From a virus: a stretch of 37,640 nt of DNA. The position numbers were made by a program, and so were the translations under genes. Each line of letters opens with the position of its first letter. Within the stretch, counting starts at the first letter, position 1. The stretch lies in IMG/VR virus record IMGVR_UViG_3300021256_000065; one strand, given 5' to 3'. Positions 3,890 through 37,640 of this stretch are shown here, in pieces. Below the pieces are notes generated by a model. That model was not told the origin of the DNA, searched no databases, and was given only the letters and a program-made list of their open reading frames with translations.

Positions 3890-3903
3890 TCCCCCAACCC
3901 TTT

Positions 3904-11290: not shown

Positions 11291-11459
11291 TGTTTTTCTC
11301 CTTTATTTCATTTTCTTATCTATATTATATAATATTTTTTTCATTTTTTCAACCTTTTATACCACTTTCCTTTTTCTTCTTTTGATTTTTATAAGTTTTT
11401 TTGATATAATAATATCATAAGAAAATAACTTATTACATTTTAACAAAAGAGGAAAAGCC

Positions 11460-11966: not shown

Positions 11967-11971
11967 TAAAA

Positions 11972-12274
11972 ATGAATTGTAAAGAATGTGAACATTATCA
12001 AAATCAAACTTGCATATGGAACTATGATTATTTAGATACAGATTATGCATATGATTGTTGTGATTTTATTCATAAAAAGGAAAATTATCACTTAAAAATA
12101 TACATTTTTAAGGACAAAAAATATAAAAAGGAGAAAAAAATGACTGGAGATGAATTAATTGGTTTCATTATTGCGAACCATTTAGAAGATTATGAATTTA
12201 TAAGATATAATTATGGGGATAGGCATGATATTTATCCAGAAATAGATGAAGATAATCATCAGGTATTAATTTAA
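11972..12274 (+). CDS. Cys-rich small protein, possibly two fused small ORFs
   Basis: ORF. An internal RBS AAAAAGGAGAAAAAAA precedes the ATG at about 12140. Confidence 0.35.
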   Translation: MNCKECEHYQNQTCIWNYDYLDTDYAYDCCDFIHKKENYHLKIYIFKDKKYKKEKKMTGDELIGFIIANHLEDYEFIRYNYGDRHDIYPEIDEDNHQVLI

Positions 12275-18485: not shown

Positions 18486-19271
18486 ATGTTTTGTTTAGAT
18501 TATTATCCTTCTCAAAAGTATCTATAGGACGCGGATGAATTTAAAATTAAATATCGTCCATCTGATCGTACATTAGAAGATTTCTTAAATAAATATATTA
18601 ACAAATCTATCGTGATAGATGTATCAGATTCTTTTGAGTAGGTTGATGCACAGTTATTAAAAGGATTATCTGATAAATATCAAAATGTTAAGATTATTTT
18701 TAATTTTAATAAAAAAGATTATTTATCAAGAGCCGAAAAATATAACATTCCACATTTTTTTATCAATCCAATTACTTCAATAGATCAACTGTGGGGATTG
18801 ATAAAATATAATCCAACTGATATGTATATATGTAGTGAATTAGGTTTTTCATTAGATAAAATTAGTAGGCTGTTACATGAAAATAACATTAAAGTTAGGG
18901 TTTTTCCAAATGTTTGTCAATCAACTTTTTTTTCAGAAATTCCTAGTATAAAAACATTTTTTATTAGACCAGAAGATATTCCCGTATATAGTTAGTATGT
19001 AGATGTTTTTGAATTAGTCACAAATGAAAAAACTCAACGAATTTTATTTAAGATTTATAAACAAAATAAATGGATTGGACAATTAAAAGATATTATTCCT
19101 ACTTTTAAAGATTAGCTTGATAATAAATATTTATTAAAAAATTTTGGAGAACTTAGAAGTAAATGCGGCAAGCGGTGTATGTACACCTTTGGCGGCTGTA
19201 ATATATGCGATAGATTCATAGAAATTGTAAATCTTATTGAAGAAAGTAAAAATGCGTCAGAAAATCAGGAT
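18486..19271 (+). CDS. hypothetical protein with 4 in-frame TAG codons and a C-terminal CGKRC...GGCNIC motif
   Basis: RBS AGGAGG. A single frame of about 260 codons interrupted only by TAG. Ends TGA. Confidence 0.45.
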
Positions 19272-19328
19272 TGATTTTTTTGAAAATTTTTGATATAATA
19301 TGTATATAAAATAAAGAGGAGAAATAAT

Positions 19329-20131: not shown

Positions 20132-20202
20132 AGGGCATTAGCTCAGTGGGAGAGCGCGCGTCTTATAAACGCGTGAGGGTAGTTCAATTCTACCATGCCC
20201 TA
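20132..20202 (+). tRNA. tRNA-Ile (anticodon TAT)
   Basis: Cloverleaf AGGGCAT/ATGCCCT. Anticodon loop CTTATAA. Confidence 0.7.
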
Positions 20203-20294
20203 TTATCTGGTTTAAAGAATTTCTTTTTGATTTTTTTAAAAAAATATTATATAATATTTATATGATAAAGATAGAAAAAGAAAGGAAATTGCAT

Positions 20295-21209
20295 ATGACA
20301 GAGATTATGATTGATGCACTTGATCTTGATGAAGATATGGAATTTGATCAAGAGAATGAAACAATTATAGAACAGCCTGATGCGGTTGTTACAAGTCCTG
20401 TAAAAATGTATTTACGAGAAATCGGCAAATATAATCTTCTGTCAAGAGAAGAAGAAATAGAACTAGCGGAAGCCGCCCTTAAAGGCGATAAGGAAGCGAA
20501 AGAAGCCCTTATCAATCACAATTTACGTTTGGTGGTTTCTGTTGCTAAACGCTATATGGGGCGAGGACTTACTCTTCTTGACCTGATTCAGGAAGGAAAT
20601 GTAGGTTTAATTAAGGCAGTTGATAAGTATGATGTGTCTAAGGGTTTTAAATTCTCTACATATGCTACCTATTGGATTAAGCAGGCAATTTCTCGTGCAG
20701 TAATGGATCAGACTAGAAATATTCGTATTCCTGCCCATATCATTGAGATGATGAGTAATATTAAAAAGACTGAACGTGAATTTCAGCAGATTCATGGGCG
20801 TGAGCCTAAAGAAGCTGAAGTTGCGGCTGCTCTTGATATTGAAGTTAAAAAAGTTAAGGAAGTATATGCCTGGATGAAGGATACTACTTCTCTTGATATT
20901 ATAGTCGGCGATGATGAAGATATTACGGTTGGCTCTTTTATTGAAGATGAGTCTGCAGTTCCTGCTTTTGCGGCAATCGAAGAAAATGATCGCACTATCG
21001 CGATTAAAAATATCCTTGATACTTTGAATGATCGTGAAAAAATGGTTATTGTACGGCGGTTTGGTATTGGTCTTGATAGAGCCGAAACTCTTGATGAGAT
21101 TGGTAAGGAACTTGGACTTAGCAGAGAGCGCATTCGTCAGATTGAAGCAGCTGCGCTTAGAAAGTTGCGGAATCCTCGTCGTGCTAATCTGCTTAAAGAA
21201 TTTTTCTAA
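20295..21209 (+). CDS. RNA polymerase sigma-70 family factor (RpoD-like regions 1.2 to 4)
   Basis: YLREIG (1.2). [18 protein letters not shown] and [12 protein letters not shown] (region 2). A region-4 [30 protein letters not shown]. Confidence 0.85.
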
Positions 21210-21301
21210 AATTTTTTTGGGCAGGGTTGTTTAAAAAAATCTACATAATTTTTAATAAAAATAGACTTCCAGGGAAGCTTATTGATTTTCTTATAAAATT
21301 T

Positions 21302-21335
21302 TGATATAATATATATGTAAGATAAAGAGAGAAGA
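21302..21335 (+). promoter_or_regulatory. extended -10 promoter (TGaTATAAT) plus ATGTAAGATAAAG leader, upstream of the tRNA cluster
   Basis: TTTTGATATAATATATATGTAAGATAAAGAG. Confidence 0.45.
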
Positions 21336-21436
21336 AAATAATAGTTCCTTGAAGAAGTCAGAAATTCCTTATGGAGGTTGAGCCAAGCGCCACTCTCTGT
21401 AAGGAAGATTAGAAAATTGATTTTATAAAAAATTTT

Positions 21437-21460
21437 TGATATAATATATATGGAAAATTA
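21437..21460 (+). promoter_or_regulatory. extended -10 promoter (TGaTATAAT)
   Basis: TTTTTGATATAAT. Confidence 0.4.
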
Positions 21461-21639
21461 ATAAAGACAGCAATACTGCAAAATTTCAATTATTCTAGTA
21501 TAAAAATAAATTTAATTGGGTTAAATGAAAATCGTCTTTAAAAAAGACTCCAGAAAGAGCTAAAGTTTATAGTTGTTCTAATTTGGTAAGCTGCCCTGCC
21601 ATGGGAATAGTAGAAAAGGAACTTGCTGTCTTGTAATAA

Positions 21640-21713
21640 TGCCAGATAGTTCAGTCGGTTAGAACGCGTGGCTGTTAACCACGATGTCGGGGGTTCAAGT
21701 CCCTCTCTGGCAG
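21640..21713 (+). tRNA. tRNA-Asn (anticodon GTT)
   Basis: TGCCAGA/TCTGGCA acceptor. Loop CTGTTAA. Confidence 0.75.
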
Positions 21714-21916
21714 TTCTCTCAGAAACGTCTGTATTAGTACGAAGGGGCGATAGAGTGTGCGCACTAGTAGGCGAGGCAGAAGACTGAGTAGGTACACGTG
21801 TGCGGGTTTTGGTGTATATTCCTTTGCAGTGCATCAAGGTTTCCCCGAAATTAAACCAAAATCCTCATGTGTTGGCGCATGTGGGGCTTGAGGTCTGACG
21901 CCAATCAGATCTTATT

Positions 21917-21995
21917 ACTTCGATGGTGGAATGGTAGACACGCTGGTCTTAGGAGCCAGTCCTTTGGGGTGAGGGTTCGAGTCCCTCTCGAAGTA
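21917..21995 (+). tRNA. tRNA-Leu (anticodon TAG), class II
   Basis: Loop CTTAGGA. Long variable arm. T-loop TTCGAGT. Confidence 0.7.
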
Positions 21996-22163
21996 CGTAG
22001 TGAGAGTTCTAAGTCACTTTAAAGAAAGAACAGCGTCGTGTTTTTATAATTTTTAATGCTCGGCTGAATATGTGAAGTAAAAAAATTAAAGAGAGGAAAG
22101 ACTCTTGTTAGATGTTCTTTAGTTGCAACCCTCTCGCTTCCCTAATGCGCATATGGGAAGATT

Positions 22164-22230
22164 TGGAACGAAGTTTTTCAGGTAAAAACACTCGGCAGAG
22201 AGACTGTGGGTTCAAATCCTATCGTTCCAT
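22164..22230 (+). pseudogene. degenerate tRNA-like element with truncated anticodon arm
   Basis: Acceptor TGGAACG/CGTTCCA and canonical GGTTCAAATCC T-loop. Only about 15 nt lie between the D and T arms. Confidence 0.3.
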
Positions 22231-22521
22231 TTTGTCAAAGTCCTTCATGGAGGGCAGACCTAAATTGATATTAATCATGCTTGATAAAGACCGTATTTCA
22301 GCAAAACACCCTTTTCTGAACATAGGAATATTGATAAGGATCGGCTAATAACTGACGGAGTAGATTTAGCAAGTGAGGGAATTTTGTAACTCCAAATATT
22401 AAACTAAAAACCTCATTACGGTCTTGCTTTAATTGAAAATTTTAAAAAAATATATTATAATATATATAGAAAGTTAAAAAGGAGTTGATTTTATGAAAGG
22501 TGATAAACCTCTTAAATATTA

Positions 22522-22594
22522 GCGCCATTAGCTCAGATGGAAGAGCACTTGACTTTTAATCAAGAAATCTCGGGTTCGAGTCCCGAATGGCGCA
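22522..22594 (+). tRNA. tRNA-Lys (anticodon TTT)
   Basis: GCGCCAT/ATGGCGC acceptor. Loop CTTTTAA. Confidence 0.8.
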
Positions 22595-22752
22595 TTTAGT
22601 GTGATCTATCCCTCGATACCACTATCCAAAAAGTGTAAAGCGTAATGGTAGGGAGTCGTCAAAACAGGATTTTAATATTTTTCTGAAGGCAGAGACGAAT
22701 TAAATCTAAACAGGCAGAGAAAAATATATCTTTTATAATAATTTAATAAAGG

Positions 22753-22941
22753 ATGGTGAAAATTATGATATATATTGTTCATTATTTTGATGATAAACAT
22801 AAGCAGCACATGACCTTTGTTAAAACTTATAAAGATGTTGAATTTATAAGAGATCGTTTTGGAAATATCACGGTCGAAACATTAAAAGTAAAAGAGTATC
22901 CATACATAGAATATAAAATGGCAATGGCGATTGAGCAATAG
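22753..22941 (+). CDS. small hypothetical protein (62 aa) inside the tRNA array
   Basis: RBS AAAGGATGG before the ATG. Confidence 0.4.
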   Translation: MVKIMIYIVHYFDDKHKQHMTFVKTYKDVEFIRDRFGNITVETLKVKEYPYIEYKMAMAIEQ

Positions 22942-23090
22942 TGTACATAAAACTCAAAGAGTCCACCACACTGCGGCGGTCGGTAGAGAGAGACCATAGC
23001 AGACTACCTTATGGAAGTCATGATCCGTGAATTTAGGCTATATAAACGTCTGGGGAGCCTACGAAATGGACAAAGCCATTTTTAATTTAA

Positions 23091-23174
23091 GGGTCGGTGG
23101 CAACAGCGGCGACTGCACCTGACTGTAAATCAGGCACACCGGAGACACCGAAGGTTCGAGTCCTTCCCGGCCCA
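23091..23174 (+). tRNA. tRNA-Tyr (anticodon GTA), class II
   Basis: Stem CCTGA/TCAGG with loop CTGTAAA. Long variable arm. Confidence 0.7.
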
Positions 23175-23179
23175 CTTAG

Positions 23180-23253
23180 GCGGCAATAGTGGAGTGGTTT
23201 AACACAGCGGTCTCTAAAACCGCGGATCCTGGGTTCGAATCCCAGTTGCCGTA
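23180..23253 (+). tRNA. amber suppressor tRNA (anticodon CTA, reads UAG)
   Basis: Canonical 74-nt cloverleaf. Acceptor GCGGCAA/TTGCCGT with G1-U72. D-loop AGTGGTTTA. Anticodon stem GCGGT/ACCGC with 7-nt loop CTCTAAA, anticodon at 23214-23216. T-arm CTGGG-TTCGAAT-CCCAG. Discriminator A. Confidence 0.85.
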
Positions 23254-23257
23254 TTAT

Positions 23258-23331
23258 CGCGGGGTAGAGCAGTTCGGTAGCTCGTCAGATTCATATTCTG
23301 AAGGTCGTGGGTTCAAATCCCACCCGCCGCA
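23258..23331 (+). tRNA. tRNA-Met or Ile2 (anticodon CAT)
   Basis: Begins CGCGGGG like an initiator tRNA. Loop TTCATAT. The acceptor 3' strand CCGCCGC needs one bulged nucleotide. Confidence 0.6.
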
Positions 23332-23669
23332 ATTCAAAGCACATATATCCGCGCAGATATATGTTTTGTGCTGAGAAGTTTGTTTTCTACTTTTGTTCTT
23401 AAAATCAAAGAGAGTGACTTTAGGTATTCAAGAAGAATATCTCCGTGCTTCTGGAGACAGCGGTCGTCAATGAGTTCATGTCCTTAATGAGCGATTCCCC
23501 TTCGAGGCGCAAAAAAGTAGAGGGGTTACGAGTCTACTAGCTACTATACTCGTGAGTAGCAAATATGCGGGGGCCACGATACCGTGTGGTGTAAAATCGG
23601 TAGCATACTGAATAATCAATTCAGAGATCTAAAGTAGCGTATTAGCACGGTGGGCGTGTAGCCGCATTT

Positions 23670-23740
23670 GCCTCTATCCGCTAATGGTAGGCGAAGTGAC
23701 CTGTAATCACTCAATCCCCGTTCGAATCGGGGTGGAGGCT
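23670..23740 (+). tRNA. tRNA-Thr (anticodon TGT)
   Basis: GCCTCTA/TGGAGGC acceptor. Loop CCTGTAA, with an unusual C33. Confidence 0.6.
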
Positions 23741-23762
23741 TAAAATCACTTACAGCAAAAAT

Positions 23763-23835
23763 TGTTCAGTAGTCAAAAGGTTAAGACATTAATTTTTAAG
23801 ATTAAGTAATGCTGGTTCGATTCCAGCCTGAGTTG
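23763..23835 (+). tRNA. tRNA-like gene with anticodon TTA (ochre-suppressor-like); functionality doubtful
   Basis: Canonical T-arm GCTGG-TTCGATT-CCAGC. Anticodon stem TTAAT/ATTAA with loop TTTTAAG. Acceptor has a 1-72 U-U mismatch. TAA clearly terminates genes in this window. Confidence 0.35.
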
Positions 23836-23849
23836 AGTGATTTGTTTTT

Positions 23850-23932
23850 GCGGGCGTGGCGTAATAGGTAGGCGCTAAGGTCTTAAAAACCTTTGGATCT
23901 AGTCCGTACGGGTTCAAGTCCCGTCGCCCGTA
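23850..23932 (+). tRNA. tRNA-Leu (anticodon TAA), class II
   Basis: Loop CTTAAAA. Long variable arm. GCGGGCG acceptor. Confidence 0.7.
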
Positions 23933-24108
23933 TTAATAATATATTTGGATGGTTTGGAATCCATCGCCGCACTTTATTATTGGTTGAGTATAAGTGCGAC
24001 ATAACCCAACCAAAGGGCAAATATATATTATATATTAAAAGTTTTGCAAAACTTATTAGAATTGCCCAATAGCAAATTATTAATGGAAGATGGGCATTAA
24101 TTACAATT

Positions 24109-24181
24109 TGATAGGTAGCTCAATTGGTAGAGCGGCGGCGCGTTAAGCCGTGTGTTGGAGATTCGAGTTCTCCCCTATCAA
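24109..24181 (+). tRNA. tRNA with GTT-type anticodon loop GCGTTAA (Asn-like, non-canonical C33)
   Basis: TGATAGG/CCTATCA acceptor. D-arm GCTC-AATTGGTA-GAGC. T-arm GGAGA-TTCGAGT-TCTCC. Confidence 0.5.
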
Positions 24182-24187
24182 CTATAT

Positions 24188-24272
24188 GGTGTAGTACCTC
24201 AGTGGGGAGGAGGCGCGGTCCTGAAAACCGTCGCTCCGAGAGGGGCTGAAGGTTCGAATCCTTCCTGCACCG
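24188..24272 (+). tRNA. tRNA-Ser (anticodon TGA), class II
   Basis: Anticodon arm GCGGT-CCTGAAA-ACCGT resembles the bacterial Ser(UGA) arm. Long variable arm. Confidence 0.6.
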
Positions 24273-24277
24273 CTATT

Positions 24278-24365
24278 GGATGGGTGGCAGAGTTGGTTGA
24301 ATGCGGCACCCTGCTAAGGTGTTAGTCACTTCGGTGGCTCGCGAGTTCGAATCTCGCCTCATCCG
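24278..24365 (+). tRNA. tRNA-Ser (anticodon GCT), class II
   Basis: Loop CTGCTAA. Long variable arm. T-arm GCGAG-TTCGAAT-CTCGC. Confidence 0.65.
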
Positions 24366-24402
24366 CATTTATAATAAAATATAATAGAAAAGGAATATTA
24401 AT

Positions 24403-24942
24403 ATGCAGGATATAAGATTAAAAATTTCCCCGCCTTGGGTAACTTATATTAATAAAATCTAGGCTCTTTTTGATGGAGATTCGCAGATTGATTGTAGTGT
24501 AAATTATAGTAGCAAAAAACCAGAAGTTGTACTTACTTGTAATAATGGTGATAAGGTTAATGCCTTAATGCAAATTCTTCCTAGGGAGGTTCCATTTGGA
24601 AATGTAACTCTTAATGTTGTAATTAATGGAGTTCCAAGCAATAGAGCATTTGTAAATAAAAAGGAGTTGTTTGAAGTTGTTTTTGAAAAGAATCCTGTAT
24701 TTGCATATGCGGTTGCCCCTGCTGAAGAAGGTGTCTTTTGGTTTGATATTGTTTATGTTGTCTTTAAAAATTGTGTTGTGCAATTCTTTAATGATAATTT
24801 AAATGATTGTCATGGTATAATTAGCACTCTTTATCAAAATATTGCGGAAGATATTTTAACAGGTGAAGCTGTTAATGGTGTATATTTTAATACAGATATT
24901 GAACAAGGTAAACTTGGTAAACCTCTTGGAGAGTGGCCATAA
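24403..24942 (+). CDS. hypothetical protein with 1 in-frame TAG, inside the tRNA array
   Basis: RBS AAAAGGAAT before the ATG. The frame is continuous with the ORF at 24568-24942 through the TAG at about 24460. Confidence 0.4.
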
Positions 24943-24961
24943 TTAAGATTTGTTTAATAAT

Positions 24962-25077
24962 AGTGCGGTGGCGGAACAGGTAAACGCATCGAAGGAGCGA
25001 GATGGTTAGGAACATATTATTGCGTGGAAAACCTCATGTAAAAACCATCATGTAAGGTGCAAATCCTTACCCGCACA
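24962..25077 (+). tRNA. tRNA-like structured RNA, paralog 1, with an insert of about 60 nt between the D and T arms
   Basis: Acceptor, D-arm GG-containing loop and T-arm TAAGG-TGCAAAT-CCTTA are shared with 25510-25615. Compensatory acceptor changes (C4-G69 versus U4-A69) support the fold. Confidence 0.45.
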
Positions 25078-25304
25078 ATTAAGGAGTGGTCTGGCAATAC
25101 CTCTATTATCATAGTGCAGATATGCATAAGTAATAACTTCAGATGAGTTATTACAAAAAGGCAGACCTTAGTATACAAAGACTCCAATATGAATATACGA
25201 AAACTCTGATTGGAAGTCAGTCACGGTTGATATATCGTGCAATGAAAACTGGTTTGCTAATGAGCATTAAAGTGCGGTCGAAGGCCAAGACTGCCGCCAG
25301 TCAT

Positions 25305-25394
25305 CGGAACGTAGCTCAATGGTAGAGCTTTGACGGTAAACAACAAGGGGTTCGTCACCTACTTGTGATGCACGTTCGAATCGTGCCGTTCCAA
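25305..25394 (+). tRNA. tRNA-like gene with C1xA72 mismatch and about 18 extra nt; anticodon unresolved
   Basis: Perfect D-arm GCTC-AATGGTA-GAGC and T-arm GCACG-TTCGAAT-CGTGC. Internal stem ACAAG/CTTGT with a 14-nt loop. Confidence 0.4.
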
Positions 25395-25509
25395 CGGCTG
25401 CCGAGAGCAAACGATCCGCTTGCAGGGAAGTTACCATAGAGTAGAGCTTCAGAAGAGTGCGGGATGAGCGGTTGGTGGAAACCTGAACCACCATTATAGA
25501 ATTTAGCAT

Positions 25510-25615
25510 TATGTGGTGGCGGAATAGGTAGACGCAGTGAGCGCCAAGCGGACATTGATTGTAGGGTAAGACCTGAGAGTCTTTGTCATGTAAGGTGCAA
25601 ATCCTTACCCACATA
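25510..25615 (+). tRNA. tRNA-like structured RNA, paralog 2
   Basis: See 24962-25077. Confidence 0.45.
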
Positions 25616-25674
25616 ATAAGCTGTATGGCTTACCATAGGGGGTCATAGCTCAGTTGGGAGAGCGCATCCCTTGC

Positions 25675-26152
25675 TTGAAAAACTTATATTTTTAAAATAT
25701 TATGGAAACTAAACAACTTGGAAATTTAACTTAGTTACAATGTATTACTCGTTTTTATGAATTAGGATATTCAGTATCAATACCTTATGGAGATAGTGAA
25801 AAATATGATATGATACTTGATATTAATGGAAAATTATATAAACTTCAAGCAAAACATGCTAAAGAATTTTATACAGAAGATAATCAATTATCATATATAA
25901 AGATAAAAACTTCTTGGCAATCTGGATATACTAAACAAAGTCAATATCATACAAATAAGTATTCTAAAAATGAAATTGATTTTTTTGTTACATACTTTCA
26001 AGGTAAAAATTATTTAATTCCAGTAGAAGAATGCTCAACTGAAAAAATATTAAGAATTTTACCTCCAAAAAATGGACAAATAAAAGGAATATCTTTTTTA
26101 GAAAACTATATTGATGAGGAGGTTATTAAAAAATTATAAGTATTATCAGGTA
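25675..26152 (+). mobile_element. intervening sequence in tRNA-Ala carrying a nuclease ORF (intron or homing-element candidate)
   Basis: Lies between the two tRNA halves and contains the ORF 25702/25810-26139. Confidence 0.5.
25702..26139 (+). CDS. PD-(D/E)XK / Hjc-like nuclease (homing-endonuclease candidate); the longer form needs TAG read-through
   Basis: ELGYSVSIPYGDSEKYDMILDINGKLYKLQAK fits an E...D...(D/E)xK nuclease core. The ATG at 25702 is in frame with the 25810 ORF through one TAG. Confidence 0.4.
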
Positions 26153-26330
26153 AAGGATGAGGTCGAGAGTTCGATTCTCTCTGGCTCCACCATTGCGGCA
26201 TCTGGAACTATGTATTTAGTTTTAACCACGCCAAAAGCAAGAAGGATTGGATTCGCGAATACAGATGAGACTTCTTGTAAAGACCCTCTGGCTTGATAGT
26301 TACTTCGAGAAGTATAGGAACTATCAATAG

Positions 26331-26406
26331 ACTCGATTAACTCAGCTGGGAGAGTGCGACTCTTACAAAGTCGAAGTCGTTGGTTCGAGTCCAACATCGA
26401 GTACCA
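26331..26406 (+). tRNA. tRNA-Val (anticodon TAC), CCA encoded
   Basis: ACTCGAT/ATCGAGT acceptor. Loop CTTACAA. T-arm GTTGG-TTCGAGT-CCAAC. Confidence 0.75.
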
Positions 26407-26530
26407 TCTGCGGGGCCGGCGTATAAATGGTCCCACCACCTGACTCGTAGTGAACACGGAACGCTGAAAGGTCTTGGGGAACTCCAGGGTAAGATACTCT
26501 GCAAGGGGAGGTTGTGCTCCCTACTTTTAA

Positions 26531-26602
26531 CGGGGCGTAGCGTAGCGGTTACGCGCTAGTTTTGGGAACTAGATTAGGCAGGTCCGACTCCTGTCGCCCC
26601 GA
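26531..26602 (+). tRNA. tRNA-Pro (anticodon TGG)
   Basis: C1-G72 and A73. Anticodon arm CTAGT-TTTGGGA-ACTAG. Confidence 0.65.
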
Positions 26603-26952: not shown

Positions 26953-27525
26953 ATGAAAAAAATAATATTATGTACTGCTTTTTCCTTATTTTTACTTAAC
27001 ACTGATGCGGTTGCCGCTACAAAAAAAGTCACCGCAAATTTAAATGTAAGAAAATAGCCAAATACAGAGTCTGAAATAGTTGGGTTATTACCAAAAGGGA
27101 AGATAATTAAAACTAAAAAGACTGAAAATTAGAATTGGGATAAAATTAAATATGAAGATGAAACTTGCTATGTTTGTAATACTTATTTAGAAAAAGTAAG
27201 TAAAGAATAGCTAGAAAAGATAGAAGAACTTTTATCCTTACGAGAAATTTCTTTAGAAGATTTTAGATATAGAGGTGTTATTAATTGGAGTGGATGGAAT
27301 TGGACATATTACTTAATGAGTCAATTCCCTGGATCAACTTCAACACCAGTAGAGGGAAGGTATGTTAATGATGAAGGTTTTGTTTGTGATAGTTAGGGAT
27401 ATATAATTTTAGCTTCAGTTGACTTATCTCCCTACACAATAGTAGATACACCATTTGGTTATCAAGGTAAGGTATATGATACTGGATGCCCATATGGAAC
27501 ACTTGATGTTTACGTTAATTGGTAA
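26953..27525 (+). CDS. secreted cell-wall-binding hydrolase-like protein (signal peptide, SH3b, 3D domain) with 4 in-frame TAG
   Basis: Signal peptide MKKIILCTAFSLFLLNTDAVAA. LNVR.xP...W.KIKY (SH3_3-like). GYIILASVD...GKVYDTGCPYGTLDVYV (3D-domain-like). Only TAG interrupts the frame. Ends TAA. Confidence 0.55.
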
Positions 27526-28199: not shown

Positions 28200-29711
28200 A
28201 TGAATACTTTTCTTAATCAGATGAAGAAAGATAATAATATTGATTATACAGAGAATGGCGGCGTGACCCATAAGTCTACGGAGTCTAAGGTTCTTGACAT
28301 GTTTGCGGTCGGCGGTGCATATAGAAACCGTTCTGATGAAGATGTTATTCTTCTCTTCAAAAACGCATTTGAAGAAGACCGCCTTCTGGCTATGAAATGC
28401 CTGTTTTATCTTCGCGATGTGCGCGGAGGACAGGGAGAAAGACGCTTCTTTAGAGTTGCCTTTCGCTGGCTTTGTGACGAATATCCTGAAGTTGCAAAGA
28501 AGAACCTTGACAATGTTAGTGAGTATGGTCGCTGGGATGATTTGATTTATGTTACGGAAGGTACTAGATGTCAAACCGCCGCATTCAATATCATCAGACA
28601 TCAGCTTGCTCTTGATACTCAGTGCAAAACGCCCTCCCTGCTTGCAAAGTGGCTTCCTTCTCAGAATGCTTCCAATGCAGAGACCAAGAGATTGGGACAT
28701 GTTTTGGCAAATTTCTTAGGGATGACCAGCCGCGAATATCGTAAGACCCTTTCTGTTCTTCGTGAACGCATTAATGTGCTTGAGCGTCTTATGAGCACTG
28801 GTAGATGGGATGAAATCGAATTTGATAAAATTCCTTCTAGAGCAGGTATTATTTATCGTAATGCCTTTGCTCGCCGCGATATTCTTGCCAAAAAGTATGA
28901 AGCTTTTGCCAAGAGTAAAGATACTAAGGTAAATGCAGATGCACTGTATCCGCACGATATTGCTCACAGAGCTTTTGAGATGCGTTATCATACTAACCTT
29001 GAAGATCCCACTCGTCTTATGCTTCAGAAGTATTGGGATAATCTCAAAGACTTCTATAACGGCAGAGAAGAGAATGGTATTGCAGTCGTTGATGTGTCTG
29101 GCTCCATGTCTGGAACTCCAATGGAAGCTGCAGTTTCTATGGGGGCTTACATCGCAGATAAAGCACATGGGCCTTTTGCGAATCACTTTATTACTTTTTC
29201 TTCCTCTCCTGAATTGGTAAGGTTTGAAGGAGTTGATATTGTTGATAAGTTTCGTCGTTGTGTTGGGGCAAACTGGGGTATGAATACCAACTTGCAGGCG
29301 GTATTTGATATGCTTCTGCATACTGCAATGAGAAAGAATGTAAAGGCTGAAGATATGCCGACTCGAATTTACATTTTTTCTGATATGGAGTTTGATCAGT
29401 GTGTGTCTTTTGATTGTACCCCTAAGCTTCACAGATGGGAAGGTTACCGTACTGTCAACTCTGTTGATGAGGTAAATTCCGATCTTGAGAAGATTAAAAA
29501 GGAATGGGCACGGTATGGATACAAAATGCCTCAGGTCATCTTTTGGAATCTCGATGCCCGTCAGAATCATATTCCAGCTATTGGAGAAGGGTTCAGTTAC
29601 GTGAGTGGTTTTTCGCCTTCTATGATTGACTGCATCTTGAGCGGCAAGGATGGCTGGGATTTGATGCTTGAAAAGCTCATGTCCAAACGTTATGCGGCAG
29701 TTGTTGCATAA
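28200..29711 (+). CDS. vWA-domain protein, DUF2828-like (503 aa)
   Basis: MIDAS-like VVDVSGSMSG. N-terminal TENGG...YLRDVRGGQGERRFFR, as in DUF2828. No internal TAG. GC content above that of its neighbours. Confidence 0.5.
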   Translation: MNTFLNQMKKDNNIDYTENGGVTHKSTESKVLDMFAVGGAYRNRSDEDVILLFKNAFEEDRLLAMKCLFYLRDVRGGQGERRFFRVAFRWLCDEYPEVAKKNLDNVSEYGRWDDLIYVTEGTRCQTAAFNIIRHQLALDTQCKTPSLLAKWLPSQNASNAETKRLGHVLANFLGMTSREYRKTLSVLRERINVLERLMSTGRWDEIEFDKIPSRAGIIYRNAFARRDILAKKYEAFAKSKDTKVNADALYPHDIAHRAFEMRYHTNLEDPTRLMLQKYWDNLKDFYNGREENGIAVVDVSGSMSGTPMEAAVSMGAYIADKAHGPFANHFITFSSSPELVRFEGVDIVDKFRRCVGANWGMNTNLQAVFDMLLHTAMRKNVKAEDMPTRIYIFSDMEFDQCVSFDCTPKLHRWEGYRTVNSVDEVNSDLEKIKKEWARYGYKMPQVIFWNLDARQNHIPAIGEGFSYVSGFSPSMIDCILSGKDGWDLMLEKLMSKRYAAVVA

Positions 29712-29981: not shown

Positions 29982-30461
29982 ATGATAGCATTACTTTAGC
30001 ACTATTCTTTATCTGATATATTAATCTTCTTGATTTTTCTTGCTCTAGGTATTAAAAGTTTAATTTCTTTTTTTGACTGGGTTTATGGATATATAAAAAG
30101 AGCTTTTAATATAGAATACTCTAAAAAGAGTGAAAAATAGCAAATTGAGTAGCGGTTACAGCAAGGTAGCGAAACCATAGCAATTTTAACCGCAAATCAA
30201 TAGGCAACTGATAAAGTTCTTTTAGATTTATCCGCAAAAATTGATATGTTAATTGATTCAGATAAAGATGCAATAAAGTCTTATATAACAAAAGAACATC
30301 ATCATTTCTGTTATTAGGTTGGATAGATAGACGACTTTAGTTTGGATTGTCTTGAAAAACGTTATCAACATTATACAGATGAAGGCGGAAATTCATTTAT
30401 TGAACACTTTATGTGTGATTTAAGAGCTTTGCCTAAATAGGGTTCTTTTAATGGCAACTAA
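29982..30461 (+). CDS. small membrane protein (holin-like candidate) with about 7 in-frame TAG
   Basis: RBS AAAAGGAGGG. N-terminal TM ILIFLIFLALGIKSLISFF. Frame closed only by TAA at 30459-30461. Confidence 0.35.
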
Positions 30462-30491: not shown

Positions 30492-32369
30492 ATGGCATTG
30501 ATGTTAAACACTTTATATCCACCTATTATGATGGATGTAATCCCTGGTTTTATAAGAACATCAACATGTAGAATATATTTTTCTATATCCGATTATAATT
30601 CTGCCAAAGACATAGCAAATGTTCAAGTTGCATTAACAAATGTAAAAACTAACACTTCTGCATTGAATACTGATTTGTACCCCGCAGAAATTAAATTAAC
30701 TGAATTACTTTATGATGACCAAAAGTAGGACGATTATTGTTATTATATAACAATAAGTCCTGCTGATTTAGCGGGCGGGGAATTTTTATTAAATCAATAT
30801 TATAAAATTCAATTACGCTTTACATCAAAAGATGCAGATAGTGTTAGTTTAACTGGAGTTCAACAAATTGCTACTTGGTTAAATAATAATCTTATGTTCT
30901 TTTCTTAGTGGTCACGTGCGGGAATCATTAGAGGGATTTCAAGACCAACGCTTTATATTGATTATTTAGATGATGAGGATGAAGAAGAGGAAGAAGAAAG
31001 TGAAAATATTTCATTATCCGCCCCATTATCAAAAATTACTGGTAGATTAACTTTTGCAGATGAAGGCGAATTAGACTATTTAGCTTCTTATAATGTTAAA
31101 GTTTATTTAAGTAAGCAAGATAATAAATTAATTTTTGATAGTGGTATTCAACATCCAATAGAAGAAAATGAGATTGATTGTAACTTATTATGTGATTTAT
31201 AGGATTAGCGGCTGTATATGATAAAAATTAGTTATACTACAAACTATGCTTATAGTAAATAGGAAAACTATATAATACAAGTGCGAGTCGAGAGCCAAGA
31301 CTTAAATCCATTCAATCTAACAATCACTCCAACAAGAAATGAAGAGGATGGTTATATAAATCTTCATATTACGATGGATAAAACTAAAGATTTTTCTGAT
31401 AAACAATTATTAATTAGAAGAATATCTTCAAAAGATAATTTCTTAATATGGGAAAATTTATATGCTATAGATTAGAGCTTTTCCACATTTGATTGGCAAG
31501 ACTTATCTGTAGAAAGCGGGATTTGGTATAAATATGCGTTATATGTAGTAGATTTAAATAAAACTATTTTATATAACCCTATAGAAACAGATCCAATATT
31601 GTGCATTTTTGAAGATATATTTTTAGTAAGTGATAATATTCAATTAAGATTACAATTTAATCCTTCCATAACAAGTTTTAAATATAATACAACTGAATCT
31701 CAACAAGTTACTTTAGGAGGAAAATTTCCTTATATTAGAAGAAATGGAAATAATTATTATAGAACCTTTTCTATTGGCGGTCTTATTAGTTCTTTAATGG
31801 ATGAAACTGATTGGTATGATTCTTATATTCATCCGCCGCATCCAATATAGGGAGAAGAAGAACAGGAAGAAGAAGAAATCACTTTACCACATATCAGATT
31901 TACTTCTAAATAGGATAAATATAAAGATTCTTATGATTTATATCAACAATATGAATCAGATAAAAATATTTCTAATTATCTTAATCCAATATATGAAAGA
32001 TTCTTTAGAGAAACTGTATATGATTTCTTTTATAAAAATAGTGTAAAATTATTTAAATCTCCAACAGAAGGTAATATATTAGTTAAATTAACCAATATTA
32101 ATTTTGAGCCTCAAGCTCAATTAGGACGCGTATTATATTCATTTACCGCAACCACAGTTTAGATAGATGAACCAACTTTTGAAAATTATAAAAAATATAA
32201 AATCTTTCCTGATGATATATTTGAATATGTTACTGAATCTCCTGCTTTAGAGATCGAATTTGGTACAGCCACAATGGTGCTGGTTATAAATGCAAATGGT
32301 GCAAGTCAAAATGGAAATCAGAATTGGGCATTGCATTTAGAGCCTTATCCTATTAAAGGAGGAGGTTAA
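30492..32369 (+). CDS. large virion structural protein (tail or baseplate-like, about 625 aa) with about 9 in-frame TAG
   Basis: RBS AAAAAGGAGAA. The ORF fragments 30492, 31281 and 31599 share one frame and are separated only by TAG. Ends TAA at 32367-32369. Confidence 0.55.
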
Positions 32370-32371: not shown

Positions 32372-34396
32372 ATGCAAACATATCCATATTTAAATGATTT
32401 AGCTTTTTTAAGAGAACTTGATCTATCAAAAGTAAAAGAACAATTTGTGAGAATTAACGTTTTGTCTTTTAAAGATGAAAAACCAATAGAACAAATTGAA
32501 GGAGATGTGGTAAGCGGCAATATTACAATAGATGGAAATTCAGCGATGCGGCGAACCGCAAATTTATCTATTGTGGTAAAAAAAGATGAATATTCTAATA
32601 GAGATATTAGAAAAATTTTAACTATAAATAAAAAAGTATAGTTATTAATAGGATTTACTAATACAACTAATAAATATGAACAATATCCAATTTTATGGTT
32701 CCCGCAAGGAATTTATGTAATTATTACTCCTAATATTATTTATAATAATAATGGTATCAATATTTCATTGACATTACATGATAAAATGGCCTTGCTAAAT
32801 GGGGAATGCGGCGGAACTCTACCTGCATCTATTACATTTACTGAAATAGAAGATGTTGATGAGAATGGCGAAAGACAAATTTCTAATCCTACTATATATC
32901 AAATTGTACAAGAATTAGTTAATCATTTTGGCGGATAGCAGCTTGGAAAAATAATTATTGAACTTGATAAAAAAATAAAAAAGGTAATGCGGTGGACAGG
33001 TTCAACGCCGCTTTACCTATATCAAGAAGCACTTCCAGACGGTACAATGTATAGTAGTTTTAGTACAAATGAAAATTAGTTAAGAAGGCAAGGAGAAGGG
33101 ACAATTCAAGAATTTTAGTACGGATAGGATATAGGTTACGTTTTGACTGATTTTATCTATCCACAATAGCTAACTAATAACCCTGGAGAGACCATTGTAA
33201 GTGTCTTAGACAAAATTAAGAATTGGCTTGGAAATTACGAATATTTTTATGATATTAATGGTAATTTCAGATTCCAAGAGATAAAGAATTATTTGAATAA
33301 AACATATGCAACATTTTTAATTAATGAAATAAATTCAAATAATTACTTAACTAATTATGCAAATGGAAAATCTGTTTATACTTTTGAAGATTCTGATATT
33401 ATTCAATCATATTCAAATTCCCCGCAATATCAACAAATAAAAAATGATTTTGTTGTTTGGGGTAAAAGAACTACAACAGAAGGAAAATAGATTCCTATTC
33501 GTTATCATTTAGCTATTGATAAAAAGCCTGCAGTCGGGAATTAGTATAAAGTATTTTTCTATACTGATCCCGATGATAACATTTTAAAAGCTAAAAGACC
33601 TTTAGAATTTGCTACAAGAAATTAGTTTCCAGAAACCGGAGATGTATGTCAATATTATTATGCGGCAGACACTGGTTTTATATATAAATGGGACGCGAGT
33701 GTACAAAATTATGCCACAACCCCATATATAATTGAAACAATAGAAGCAAAAGATTATAGGACTTAGCTCTATATGTCTGGTGTTGCTAGTTAGCCGTTTG
33801 GTTTAGATAGTAATTATTATTACACAGAATTAAAAAATGAATGGCCTAAACTATATGATATGCGGCAAGGAAAATTCTTTGATGAAATACTAGATCAGCC
33901 TAGTAACATGGATTTCTTTTTAGATTTTATAGATACTTCTACCGCTATTTCAGAATTTAGCATAGAAAATATTGGTAGACGTACCCTTACAATATCAAAT
34001 GATGCAATAAATTGTATTTTTTAGCCTGATAACCCTGATATAGTTATTATTGAAGCAAACAGCGAAGGCGCGGATGATCTTCGAGAATAGTGTTAGCATA
34101 GACGACAAGAATATTCTCAAGTAACATCAGACATTTATTCACAGCTAGTTACTGGCGGAGTTTTAAGATCTGCTTATGAAGAAATAAGAACAGAACTCTA
34201 TCAATATACTGATTATAATGAACAAGTTACATTAACTACTTTACCAATTTATTATCTTGAACCTAATGTACGGATAACAATTAAAAATTAGTAGAGCGGA
34301 ATTGATGGAGATTACATGATAAAAACAATTTCATTACCATTAGATGTTAATGGAATGATGAATTTATCTTGTACAAAAGCACTTGAAAGAATTTAA
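32372..34396 (+). CDS. large virion structural protein (about 675 aa) with more than 12 in-frame TAG, including a tandem TAG TAG
   Basis: RBS AAAGGAGGAGG. Fragments 32372 and 33293 are in frame. Ends TAA near 34394. Confidence 0.5.
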
Positions 34397-34399: not shown

Positions 34400-34446
34400 A
34401 AAAAAATAATGGCGATGATATTTTTATATCATCGCCATTTTTTTAT
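34400..34446. terminator. bidirectional rho-independent terminator between convergent genes
   Basis: 13-bp stem AATGGCGATGATA/TATCATCGCCATT with A-run and T-run flanks. Confidence 0.65.
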
Positions 34447-36470
34447 GGTTTTAATCGGATAATATATCCAACTTTATAGTTAGGCCACGAAAGTGGACCA
34501 ATCCATTTTACAAAGTGAGCACCTTCACCTTTTTCTTTGCAGAAGGCATGTCCAGAATCAAATGACAAACCATTACCAAAGTAAATACATGTATGATTGA
34601 TAGTTACAAAAGTAAGAATGTCACCAGGGCAAAGTTTTCCTTCATTCATAAGCTGCTTAGGAGTTTTATTACCTACTTTAATTAAGTCTGCATACTTGCG
34701 GAGATCAGCCTACGCGTGACTATTTAACCAGCGGATGCCGCCTCCTTTTTGCCCATACCAGCTACATGCGGATGCGGGAAGTCCAGACTATTTCATTGCA
34801 AAACCAACGCCGCCCATGCAATTTGTATATAGTTTATTAGCTTTTCTTGTTTTCCAGAATGTACTTTCACTTACATGTCCACTGTTGTAATATCTCCAGT
34901 CCTTACCAGCTTTTATGTCGTCTACTAACCATTGATTTAACCGAGCACATGCCGCAAGTAATTTTTGCACTCTATTTAATTTTGGTTTATATACAACTGT
35001 TTTTGGATTTTTTAAATCATAAACTCTAAATCCCCAATTTTGATTAGCCTTGTTTTTAGCATTACTTAAGTATTGATAAGCACCAAGTTGATATTGAGAT
35101 TCAGACCATCTTCTACGAACAACATATCTATCTATTGGTGTTGCGGCGGGAGTCATTGTTACGGGCGCTTGGACTGGTGCCGCAACCGCTTTCACCTATG
35201 GATAAATTTGATTACCATTCTAATCATATGCTTTTAACCCTTTAGCTTTTGCTCTTGCTATTGCGTTAGCTTTAATTTCATAAGCATTATCCTGATTAAT
35301 ATATTTTCCATTTTTATAGTCTTGTGCAACTCTATACCAGACAGTTTTTGGCTGCGGGACTGGTGCCATCGCCCCCGCTTCTACATCTAATTTTGCTAAA
35401 TTATTTTCTTTTATAATACGAAGTACCTTCTCTTCATAATTAGGATCAGTGCAATATCCCTATGGATTGCTAGCTGTCCCAGTTCCAATTCTAATTGCAT
35501 GAATAACCGCCCCAGGATCTGTCATACCTTTGACGCGATTATATTTATAACCTTTATTATTTTTTACATGTAAAAGAAACATCTAATAATCTTCAATACA
35601 GTTTTTATAGTCTTTATAAACTCTAAAATTATCAGGCTTATGAATTAATTTACCATTAACATATTCAGGAGTTATCTTAGAAAAAACAGTGCCATCCCAA
35701 ACTGTATAATTAGACCAGCTGCCATTGATTAAATCAGCTTTCATTCCAAGAAGATTATTTCGTTTTGTTAATTCAATAGCATCAGATCCCAATCCATAAC
35801 CATTCTAGAGGCAGCACTGTGCGGCGACCACTGATGGTAAAATTTTTGTTTGTTTATAAAGATCTACACAAATTTTAGATACTTTATTAATAAAATCTTC
35901 TTTGCTTTGAGGAATACCAGAAGCTGCGGTTGTTGACGGTGTTGTACCTGCGTTTCCGCCCTTCACCCTCTCAAGAAATTCATTCCAAGTCCAAGATGTT
36001 TTATATTTATTATTATGAACATATGGAGCTGGGCAGACTTTATTTACAATATCATAATGTCTTAATACATGGTCTATTGGGATTTTTAAGTCCTTCATTA
36101 ATTTTTGGACAAGCCATACTGCGGCTTCTTGTGTTTCTTTTGTAAAATACCAATATGGATCACTTGCTAGTCCTTTGTTACCATCACAGTGACAACATAA
36201 TTCAATGCTAATTGTATTAGCATTTCTTGCGTATGGATGCTTTTGAGCATATATGCCAGCAGTACCAACTGCCCACACAATTGCATCATGGGAGCATCTT
36301 TGGAAAATTGTTCCATCCCAATAAATTGTATAGTGGGCACCAGTACCATTTTTTGATAATTCATAATTTTGACCATCTACTCCTAAATAGTGAATGGCTA
36401 TATATTCATGTGTATTTCCAAATTTTGGCACATATACTTCTGAAATTTTATTTACTATTTTATATGCCAT
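34443..36470 (-). CDS. multidomain endolysin: N-acetylmuramoyl-L-alanine amidase (Amidase_2/PGRP), linker, NlpC/P60 or CHAP-like peptidase; 3 in-frame TAG
   Basis: RBS GGAGAAAAAAT before the ATG at 36470. HYLGVDGQ...AHYTIYWDGTIFQ...NANTISIELC are amidase_2 motifs. C-terminal GDILTF...HTCIYFGNG...DSGHA. Four ORF fragments share one frame, split by TAG at 35805, 35583 and 34788. Ends TAA at 34443. Confidence 0.65.
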
Positions 36471-36568: not shown

Positions 36569-37640
36569 TTAATTTGTTTTCGAATAATATAGATTATTGT
36601 ATTTTGGGTCATACATGGTAGGTTCTTTTCCTGTAGTGACATAATAAGCAGCATTAATTCCTGCGTATTCACCCATTTCATTATAGCCAGTTTGATAAAA
36701 ATGAAATAAGTCTTTCATTAGACCCCTACTTTTAAAACTAGCCAATGTCGTTGTAACCATCACAATATCTTTATTTTCTTTAGCAAGTTCTGTTTGTTTT
36801 TCGATTACACGGCTATAATCTGTGCCTGTGCCATTATATTCTCCGATTCTGCAAAGAAAACATTTTTCAACACCAACAGCTTTTAATGCAGTAAACATTG
36901 TTTCAAAACTGGTTATATATGCTTCATCATCAGTAATTGTTGATGTATCTCCTTCGTGCTCACCTTGGCACCAAACTAAAAAGATATGTCGAATTGTATA
37001 CCCTCTCGATACAGCAAAATTTTTAGCAGAATTAAGTCTGCTAATAGCATCGTTTAAATATGGTGTATTCGGTTGCCATTCATTAATTCCAGAACCGCCT
37101 TTTGAAGCAGATACGGCAAGTACAGGAATATTACCATTGTTAGAATAATAAGCATTAACAAAGGCTGTGACCATCGAACCAGTTTTTAAATTACCATCAT
37201 CTATTCCATTACTGTTATTTTCTTTTACCCCAAAAGGTTCAATAATGGTGTCCATATATAAAGGGGCAGATATTGCTTTATATTCAAGTCCTGCATTAGG
37301 TAAAATAACGGGTGCGCTATCAGGCCATTGCTAATTTGTTATACCTCGTCCTGCCATATTTGATTGACCTGCAAACAAACATAAGTCAAAAACATTTGTT
37401 AATTTTATATTCGATATATCGCTGGTCAATGCTGCGCTGTGTTCACTTGGGTCGATGTTACTATTGTTGGTTTTTCTAATTTGAAAATAAAATGCGGTAC
37501 CCTTCTTAATATATACATCCGAAACCCAACCCTCAATACTAATTAAATCGGTTTTAGCAACTGGTGCTTCCGTGGAGGTAACTTTCATAACCGATAACTC
37601 ATATCCACTGTTAGCAGATAGATGCAAATCATAATCAACA
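36569..37640 (-). CDS. SGNH/SASA-family carbohydrate esterase (sialate-O-acetylesterase-like) with N-terminal beta-rich domain; at least 1 in-frame TAG; 5' end beyond the window
   Basis: GQSNMAGRG motif, then TAG at 37331-37333, then the in-frame continuation QWPDSAPV...LVWCQGEHEGD. TAA at 36569-36571. The frame stays open to the window edge. Confidence 0.55.

Follow-up and report, generated by a model that had tools for sequence, protein, structure and literature searches.

Stop-codon recoding with phage-borne suppressor transfer RNAs (tRNAs) is well known, and surveys and annotation tools all take TAG as Gln. In the recoded gut phages (crAss-like, Lak, Garnet and Topaz; code 15; Borges et al., Peters et al.), a tRNA with the anticodon CUA lies in a tRNA cluster, TAG is concentrated in structural and lysis genes and is not a terminator, the remaining genes follow the standard code, and no dedicated synthetase is found nearby. 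According to Borges et al., only TAG to Gln and TGA to Trp occur in phages whose code differs from that of the host, which they explain by glutaminyl- and tryptophanyl-tRNA synthetases (GlnRS, TrpRS) being easy to hijack. Gln is likewise assumed or shown by Peters et al., by Cook et al. and in the paper on phage phAss-1 (PMC10607447), and no report of amber to Glu in phages was found among open-access papers and bioRxiv preprints. The same arrangement is present in IMG/VR virus record IMGVR_UViG_3300021256_000065, of which a stretch of 37,640 nt (the window, 37.6 kb of a genome of ~134 kb) contains a 74-nt tRNA gene with the anticodon CTA at 23180-23253 (+ strand), together with late genes rich in in-frame TAG. 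A phage amber-suppressor tRNA is in itself of a known kind; the amino acid is not the expected one. TAG aligns with Gln in the recoded gut phages, where proteomics shows Gln, whereas TAG in the window aligns with Glu, and the tRNA of the window differs from their suppressors in having A73 and in lacking U1. Judging from protein alignments, TAG is likely read here mainly as Glu through this tRNA.

Phage phAss-1, of the proposed Phassvirus group (PMC10607447; OQ749652), resembles the virus of the window in its genome of about 136 kb, its many tRNAs and its TAG in late genes; its tail protein shares 31% identity with that of the window, which makes it a distant relative, it is related to Enterococcus phages, and one of its CTA tRNAs adjoins a tRNA-Glu. 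It differs in being annotated with TAG to Gln and in its three suppressors, all unlike that of the window (one with an extra arm of roughly 21 nt, one with U1/G73 that scores as tRNA-Trp, and one with a generic GCTC...GAGC D-arm). The use of phAss-1 as an external control for Gln was rejected, since at about 30% identity it is too distant and its TAG profile is mixed and untypable, with TAG sites aligned to K (17/17), M (32/40), L (24/26), W (10/11), D (27/39) and Q (5/5); the published Gln assignment of phAss-1 is not confirmed by this alignment. Relatives of the same family that use TAG as Gln, TGA as Trp or the standard code have homologous tail-module genes and similar genome sizes and lie on other branches of the tree.

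Outside phages, the peritrich ciliate nuclear code (NCBI table 30) is, to our knowledge, the only well-known natural code with TAG as Glu. There, both TAA and TAG mean Glu and are read by Glu-accepting tRNAs of the suppressor type. This code differs in being eukaryotic, nuclear and genome-wide, with TAA reassigned, whereas here TAA is the main terminator and only a class of genes is concerned. Laboratory amber suppressors of E. coli include su7, a tRNA-Trp with a CUA anticodon that is charged with Gln, and a synthetic tRNA-Glu with CUA. They are comparable in that one anticodon change creates an amber reader, U35 attracts GlnRS, glutamyl-tRNA synthetase (GluRS) and lysyl-tRNA synthetase (LysRS), and the inserted residue depends on the enzymes of the cell (see also PMC9976931). 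They differ in being point mutants in a GlnRS-containing host that mostly insert Gln, whereas the tRNA of the window is natural, belongs to a long-lived lineage and probably acts in a Bacillota host.

The amino acid assigned to TAG

The standard code breaks the window into short open reading frames, while TAG read as a sense codon gives back long genes, whose homologs are full length. There are 49 in-frame TAGs in at least eight genes (at 18.5-19.3 kb and 24.4-37.6 kb; Table 1), in keeping with the pervasive late-gene TAG noticed in a first-pass annotation that was made from the sequence alone. TAG ends none of the 20 assessed genes, 14 of which end in TAA. The 12 other assessed genes, including those for a phage sigma-70 factor and a Ro/TROVE-like RNA-binding protein, are free of TAG.

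The chief source for the identity of the amino acid is the tail-module gene at 32372..34396. Among its 62 IMG/VR relatives, 52 were aligned codon by codon, and of these 17 have no in-frame stop, 6 have in-frame TGA and 29 in-frame TAG. At the 16 TAG columns of the window, the 17 standard-code relatives have E in 48% and Q in 5% of cases; control columns of the same alignment give E 39% and Q 5% for true Glu codons, and Q 28% and E 6% for true Gln codons. Overall, relatives that do not recode TAG show E in 36-48% and Q in 5-7% at TAG columns. A Codetta-style likelihood was then calculated over 32 TAG columns of three genes and 23 relatives that do not recode TAG, with the log-likelihoods E -80.9, Q -91.5, D -94.9, K -97.7 and W -150.7. 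When columns were bootstrapped, Glu came first in 9952 of 10000 replicates, with a median lead over Gln of 10.5 units (95% interval 2.5-18.7). Trp, one of the two amino acids that had been held plausible at first pass, is the worst fit of all 20.

The procedure was checked in two ways. True E, Q, K, D and W columns were all called correctly. In parallel, relatives with other codes served as internal controls: the six TGA-recoded relatives are W-dominated at their TGA columns, with Trp on top in four and second, 0.4 units behind Tyr, in L029 and L038, and Gln is obtained for eight TAG-recoded relatives (L026, L027, L036, L043-46, L049) and, when all genes are tallied, for L060-62. By the same alignment and the same procedure, the window and its closer relatives come out as Glu. 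Since groups reading Gln, Trp and Glu are returned from one alignment, the method separates Gln from Glu.

Several individual TAGs fall on columns that are almost or entirely Glu. In particular, TAG 32936 in the tail-module gene corresponds to Glu in 43/43 relatives, TAG 30906 and TAG 32160 in the gene at 30492..32369 to Glu in 30/30 and 35/36, and TAG 18639 in the gene at 18486..19274 to Glu in 7/7. Codon usage agrees with TAG as Glu: late genes go from 57 to 73 Glu per 1000 codons if TAG is counted as Glu (early genes, 87), while counting TAG as Gln would bring late genes to 48 Gln per 1000 codons (early genes, 23).

TAG at the catalytic position of the lysin

One of the seven TAGs in the lysin gene stands at the catalytic Glu of the GH73 domain (Table 1). 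It aligns with the Glu of AQAAL-E-TGWG or AQAAL-E-SGWG in the FlgJ structures 2zyc, 3vwo and 5dn5 and with that of AQAIV-E-SGWG in 7qfu, and 3k3t has Ala at exactly the aligned residue. All 7 database homologs have Glu at this site, and the other two TAGs of the domain correspond to Glu in 5/6 homologs and in 3/3 homologs that share that insert. We take the aligned Glu to be the general acid of GH73 catalysis, and 3k3t to be an active-site mutant. The Glu of the homologs represents real GAA or GAG codons, because database entries translated with table 15 print Q. Two related loci (L001 and L048) likewise have TAG at the catalytic position. Lysin relatives were absent from reference bacterial genomes, and one homolog at NCBI was in a metagenome-assembled genome.

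A table-15 translation of this family already exists in a public database: in the cluster P0001, a protein of 674 aa with 95% identity to the tail protein shows Q at each of the 16 TAG positions, every one of them wrong if TAG is Glu. Charging with Gln, the other option of the first-pass annotation, is thus opposed by the bootstraps (rejected in 99.5%), by the invariant-Glu columns and by TAG at the catalytic Glu of GH73.

A genuine amber-reading tRNA

The anticodon (cta) is placed by ARAGORN at gene position 35 (23214-23216), and Rfam RF00005 matches identical coordinates over its full model (positions 1-71) with 68.3 bits (gathering score 29; E = 5e-13), which bears out the tRNA, its anticodon and the anticodon register given at first pass. 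The 5' half is made of the acceptor strand GCGGCAA, U8 and A9 (TA), the D-arm GTGG-AGTGGTTTAA-CAC and A, followed by the anticodon arm GCGGT-CTCTAAA-ACCGC with five pairs and a 7-nt loop; the 3' half consists of the 5-nt variable loop GGATC, the T-arm CTGGG-TTCGAAT-CCCAG, the acceptor strand TTGCCGT and the discriminator A73. Anticodon arm, 7-nt loop and discriminator are exactly as first described, as is the place between tRNA-Tyr and tRNA-Met, apart from a trivial exchange of the two spacers (4 nt after Tyr and 5 nt before Met, given as 5 and 4). The first pair is G1.U72, CCA is not encoded, the D-loop is AGUGGUUUAA, the U11-A24 pair is present, and so are all the canonical elongator residues U8, A14, G18G19, U33 and T-loop TTCGAAT. 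In the fold of minimum energy (-26.4 kcal/mol, z = -2.1), the acceptor, anticodon and T arms are recovered.

The ARAGORN label of this gene, 'Pyl', is set by the anticodon alone. A tRNA-Pyl would have a six-pair anticodon stem, a 3-nt variable loop, a tiny D-loop without G18G19 and an atypical T-loop, along with pylS and pylBCD; the five-pair stem, the 5-nt variable loop, G18G19 and TTCGAAT rule it out, Pyl genes were absent from the proteins of the window, and the alignment of TAG with Glu is a second argument against it.

Ten distinct orthologs from related phage contigs have 99.5% of cloverleaf cells paired, with both sides changed in 15 of 20 pairs, a level that none of 500 shuffles and no slid control came near, and the anticodon loop CTCTAAA is unchanged in all ten. 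This covariation and the unvarying loop establish a genuine gene, selected for amber reading and with its CUA anticodon fixed; the early proposal that the phage supplies a decoder for its own TAG-containing genes thus stands. That the tRNA is decaying or non-functional, with read-through provided by a host suppressor or by a phage gene outside the window, could be argued from the window covering only 37.6 kb of the roughly 134 kb genome and from the many recoded phages without suppressors. Given the compensatory changes and constant loop of the orthologs, a syntenic slot kept in every Glu-type genome with a recovered array, and two acceptor-stem alleles that are both perfectly paired, it is extremely improbable.

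These two alleles are seen by comparison with L067, a 96%-identical relative, from which the window is separated by a mosaic breakpoint at 23085-23185. Window 23085-23252 and L067 12096-12912 hold the same suppressor body with wholly different, perfectly paired acceptor stems (GCGGCAA/TTGCCGT in the window vs CGCCCGA/TCGGGTG in L067); the 5' side was replaced along with an inserted tRNA-Tyr, and the 3' strand shows 5 clustered changes. The swap suggests allelic exchange between co-circulating phages. With two paired stems on one body, the stem would therefore be exchangeable without loss of Glu reading.

tRNA lineage and identity elements

The suppressor alleles form a graded series, from L063-66 through L022, L069 and L163 and then L001, L072 and L074 to the window, L214 and L071. 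At its start, the L063-66 alleles have GGCCCCA.../...TGGGGTC, a D-arm GTCA-AGCGGTTTAA-GAC and a 4-nt variable loop, features common to the tRNA-Glu genes of the family. At the class-discriminating positions (A73, G2.U71, U11-A24 and a 17-nt D-arm) the suppressors follow tRNA-Glu, not tRNA-Gln. G1.U72 occurs in 4/9 of the tRNA-Glu genes of these phages, and the combination of G1.U72 and C2-G71 in the window is also found in tRNA-Glu(UUC). A tRNA-Gln, as substrate of GlnRS or GatCAB, is marked by U1-A72, G2-C71, G3-C70, G73 and a small D-loop (in the family, G73 in 11/12 and G2-C71 in 12/12 tRNA-Gln genes), while the suppressor of the window has G1.U72, C2-G71, G3-C70, A73, a 17-nt D-arm and UUU after G18G19.

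Global sequence identity to isoacceptors was rejected as a guide to ancestry, all classes lying at 0.65-0.74. Covariance models were then made, after masking of the anticodons, for the tRNAs found at these phage loci (24 Glu, 23 Gln and 17 Trp). They place Glu first for 12/12 members of the lineage, by 3 to 14 bits, although tRNA-Asp also scores high on the Glu model. L066 scores 71.4 bits on Glu, 57.7 on Gln and 52.2 on Trp, and the window allele 68.1 on Glu, 65.0 on Trp and 64.0 on Gln; the U1/G73 suppressor of L079 has Gln first and the second phAss-1 suppressor Trp. On these scores the lineage is Glu-like overall, and the window allele is nearly equidistant from the Glu, Gln and Trp classes. 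For this reason the Glu assignment rests on the proteins and not on the tRNA body.

The identity set of E. coli GluRS comprises U34, U35, C36, A37, U11-A24, U13-G22:A46 and a lack of residue 47, with G1-C72 and U2-A71 as weak determinants and no need for a particular discriminator (PMC9976931). Of this set, U35, A37 and U11-A24 are kept in 10/10 orthologs. An exchangeable acceptor stem would fit GluRS, which does not need the discriminator and for which acceptor pairs count as weak determinants. For bacterial GatCAB, a tRNA must have U1-A72, and a supernumerary base in the D-loop leads to its rejection (PMC2811023). The first pair of the suppressor lineage is CG, GU or GC, never U-A, and the D-loop is enlarged (GG-UUU-A, with two extra U after G18G19); amidation by GatCAB is therefore predicted not to take place.

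Distribution of codes in the phage family

In a neighbour-joining tree of the tail protein (relatives L001-L062, with the gene at about 10001-12000 in most), all Glu-type loci fall in one clade of 22 tips, of which 19 are typed as Glu (L013 from a single TAG in the tail gene) and the other three, each with a single TAG, are untypable. Among the complete genomes, IMGVR_UViG_3300021399_000007 (133.9 kb) is 96% identical to the window. Two or three separate lineages next to standard-code relatives are made up of the Gln-type loci (L026, 27, 36, 43-46, 49, 60-62), with IMGVR_UViG_3300045988_161236 and 3300035499_000522 as examples of Gln-type records, and a further clade comprises the TGA-to-Trp loci (L029-31, 34, 35, 38). 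Within one phage family there thus seem to be four codes: the standard code, TGA as Trp, TAG as Gln and TAG as Glu. We propose, tentatively, that a clade of gut and rumen phages of about 130-145 kb uses TAG for Glu, a code undescribed for any virus or bacterium.

The suppressor follows the Glu type. In all 13 Glu-type contigs with a recovered array, a CTA tRNA of this lineage lies directly upstream of tRNA-Met(cat), often directly after tRNA-Glu(ttc) and tRNA-Glu(ctc). The order in relatives is ...Glu(ttc)-[Glu(ctc)]-Sup(cta)-Met(cat)-Thr-Leu(taa); the window instead has tRNA-Tyr before the suppressor. No suppressor of this lineage was found in the recovered regions of Gln-, TGA- or standard-code relatives, and no tRNA lies less than 10 kb from the tail gene in Gln-type relatives. 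TAG is nearly absent from the L079 locus, which leaves its amino acid untypable. The distant kinship of the family to phAss-1 and, at 26% identity, to the Enterococcus phages EF1, VRE9 and H1 suggests a Bacillota host.

Across the collection, a sample of loci (L097-L216) contains at least 99 distinct phage CTA tRNAs with very diverse bodies and discriminators; among the matches listed, G1-C72/A73 occurs in 37, C1-G72/A73 in 10, U1-A72/A73 in 9 and G1-C72/G73 in 9. This suggests many independent origins of phage CTA tRNAs and possibly more than one inserted amino acid. A transfer-messenger RNA (ARAGORN; tag peptide ANEYQMAA) adjoins the CTA suppressor in the related contig L163 (5686-5940, - strand).

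Evidence against Glu and rival assignments

A number of observations weigh against Glu. The case for it is wholly comparative, and the grouping of the Glu-type loci in one clade comes from a tree without support values. Within the alignments, the small gene at 29982-30461 fits Gln slightly better (-21.0 vs -23.0 for Glu), and three TAGs stand on columns with another majority residue: TAG 30315 on a mostly-Gln (17/23), TAG 30324 on a mostly-Trp (20/26) and TAG 31206 on a mostly-Gly column (17/24). The lysin also has an amidase domain, and a dead GH73 domain would not necessarily be lethal. As regards the tRNA, the Glu margin of the window allele is only 3 bits over Trp, and a sequence profile with the anticodon masked puts Trp first for it, at 45 bits, the median of phage tRNA-Trp. 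The E. coli GluRS set, which may not be that of the host, is departed from at C34 and A36 (both unavoidable in an amber reader), at 13-22 (G13.A22), at residue 47 (the variable loop being 5-nt in the window and 4 nt in 5/10 orthologs) and at the first two acceptor pairs (G1.U72 and C2-G71). Moreover, B. subtilis GluRS reportedly relies mainly on a modified U34 (PMC9976931).

The sequence profile bears on the origin of the tRNA, which the first-pass annotation had traced to tRNA-Trp. The first rank of Trp is due to the anticodon arm (GGTCTC...AAAACC) and the D-stem (GTG/CAC) and holds for the window-type alleles, with Lys second for the window; Glu ranks first for L063, L066, L075 and L163 (leave-one-out accuracy of the profile, 65-79%). 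A Trp origin is therefore favoured by the profile for the window allele but not by the covariance models, which narrowly prefer Glu, nor by the discriminator, A73 here and G73 in all tRNA-Trp and nearly all tRNA-Gln genes of these phages. The likeness to the E. coli tRNA-Trp arm on which the proposal drew is not relevant to a probable Bacillota host. Insertion of Trp or Lys, directed to TrpRS by a Trp-derived body or to LysRS by A73 and U35, which are common to tRNA-Lys, would also agree with the mostly-Trp column and with Lys as majority residue in 4/32 TAG columns. It is nonetheless hardly credible, as Trp fits worst, Lys lies 17 units below Glu, neither ever wins a bootstrap, the G73 of the family tRNA-Trp genes (5/5) is absent, and TAG occupies catalytic and invariant Glu columns.

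Ordinary code 15, known from crAss-like and Lak phages, would mean Gln, supplied either through GlnRS or through GluRS and then GatCAB. It has in its favour that Gln is the sole amber reassignment reported for phages and the one used for this family in public databases, that in E. coli extract Gln was inserted by 28 of the 29 phage tRNA-CUAs of a 2025 preprint, and the leaning of the small gene and of one TAG column. That extract, however, contains GlnRS and is not the native context, the TAG columns resemble Glu and not Gln columns in an analysis that does give Gln for other relatives, invariant-Glu and catalytic columns are encoded by TAG, and the tRNA, with A73 and C2-G71 and no U1-A72, is unlike the tRNA-Gln of the family; we regard Gln as very unlikely. 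At the codon level, Lys, Asp, Glu, Tyr, His and other residues occur as well in the columns rich in Gln or Trp, which can thus be said to tolerate change.

Ambiguous decoding into a mix of Glu and Gln, by partial amidation or by a second tRNA that reads UAG, would account for the few TAGs on Gln-rich columns and for a TAG that several Glu-type phages share in the small gene, at its position 112. The window does have another suppressor-type tRNA (UUA), and G1.U72 differs from both first pairs tested for GatCAB, U1-A72 (accepted) and G1-C72 (rejected). Such a mix is unlikely, since Gln is in no excess at TAG columns over true Glu columns (5-7% in both) and the D-loop has the extra bases that block GatCAB.

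Proposed decoding and its consequences

If TAG is Glu, the suppressor would make the ribosome read in-frame UAG in structural, tail and lysis genes as Glu. TAG-free genes, the sigma factor included, would be translated first under the standard code of the host; the sigma-70 gene lies directly upstream of the suppressor region, and the standard-code gene set would be translatable before the suppressor acts. TAG-bearing late genes would then yield full-length protein only once the suppressor is present or has accumulated, as in the published model for recoded phages, with the suppressor presumably competing with release factor 1. GluRS would have to charge it, because only this enzyme attaches Glu to tRNA, and would probably be that of the host, because no synthetase is encoded in the window; Pfam and PHROGs found no synthetase, release factor or tRNA-modifying enzyme there. 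The Glu-tRNA would escape GatCAB, and with it amidation to Gln. Charging by GluRS together with evasion of GatCAB is put forward as a possible mechanism that falls short of being probable. The amino acid at amber codons would be set by the aminoacylation machinery of the host together with the acceptor stem's top and with the D-loop: in hosts whose Gln-tRNA is made by GluRS plus GatCAB, a CUA tRNA would be glutamylated, and would stay Glu if GatCAB is evaded and become Gln otherwise.

If Glu is the correct reading, table-15 gene callers misplace a residue at every TAG of the clade, active sites included, mistranslated entries are already in public protein databases, and proteomics searches with table-15 translations miss peptides that span TAG. 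The rule of only Gln and Trp for phages would also need revision. The GluRS/GatCAB route of the host, common in Bacillota, may decide between Glu and Gln, and natural amber suppressors that insert Glu could be useful in synthetic biology.

Gene context and the tRNA array

Table 1. Positions of the TAG-bearing and neighbouring features (window coordinates unless an accession is given).
Feature	Coordinates	Strand	Basis or remark
tRNA array, 16 genes including the suppressor	20132..26602	+	ARAGORN
tRNA-Tyr	23091-23175	+	ends 4 nt before the suppressor
tRNA-Met	23259-23331	+	begins 5 nt after the suppressor
Second suppressor-type tRNA, anticodon UUA	23762..23836	+	ARAGORN; Rfam 51.3 bits
Gene with 4 TAGs, upstream of the array	18486..19274	+	TAG positions
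Phage sigma-70 family factor, 0 TAG	20262..21209	+	Pfam regions 1.2, 2, 3, 4
Gene with 1 TAG, inside the array	24403..24942	+	
SH3_3-domain secreted protein, 4 TAGs	26953..27525	+	Pfam
Small, probably membrane protein, 159 aa, 7 TAGs	29982..30461	+	low-information columns
Late protein, 625 aa, 9 TAGs	30492..32369	+	codon-level alignment
Tail-module protein, 674 aa, 16 TAGs	32372..34396	+	DUF5048 C-terminus, weak PHROG 'tail protein' match
Lysin, 675 aa, Amidase_2 + Glucosaminidase (GH73) + C-terminal domain, 7 TAGs	34443..36470	-	Pfam
Catalytic Glu site of GH73 with TAG as codon (AAQCCL-TAG-NGYG)	35805..35807	-	alignment to structures
SASA-family carbohydrate esterase, 1 TAG, 5' end beyond the window	36569..37639	-	Pfam
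phAss-1 CTA tRNAs (L094-L096)	OQ749652: 62445-62532, 62539-62610, 105747-105820		

A 17th tRNA gene of the window lies outside the array, at 3903, and a search of GenBank phage DNA with the array region returned generic tRNA matches only. In the UUA tRNA, the anticodon stem is made of A and U alone, U1 and U72 are mismatched and the discriminator is G73. TAA, and possibly TAG, would be read by it; the 96%-related contig has an identical copy, and no other locus has one. Recoding of TAA or TGA, considered on account of this tRNA, was rejected for the window: TAA is the normal terminator (14/20 assessed genes), in-frame TAA was not detected, there is no pattern of back-up stops, and the apparent TAA and TGA sites in alignments are nearly all antisense to real genes and aligned with single-nucleotide neighbours.

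Two tRNA-like elements in the region of the array, both on the + strand, are unusual. The one at 25305-25395 is 91 nt long and scores 42.1 bits with Rfam; its anticodon loop has 6 nt, its extra arm is long, and it is reported by ARAGORN as 'Thr|Tyr' with a 2-nt anticodon and no assignment. The other, at 22164-22230, is a weak match (24-30 bits on the isotype models built here) that ends in GGGTTCAAATCC...CCA and goes uncalled by ARAGORN and, at the gathering threshold, by Rfam; it may represent an interrupted tRNA or what remains of a tRNA. A PD-(D/E)XK endonuclease (PF11645; 25810-26139, + strand), possibly a homing endonuclease, is also encoded within the array. At the edge of the array, the TAG-free gene at 28200-29711 (+ strand) encodes the Ro/TROVE-like protein of 503 aa, with DUF2828 and DUF7788 (phrog_850 'RNA-binding protein', E = 4e-121). 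Since Ro-type proteins bind Y RNAs, which have tRNA-like modules, a partner RNA may lie close to this gene.

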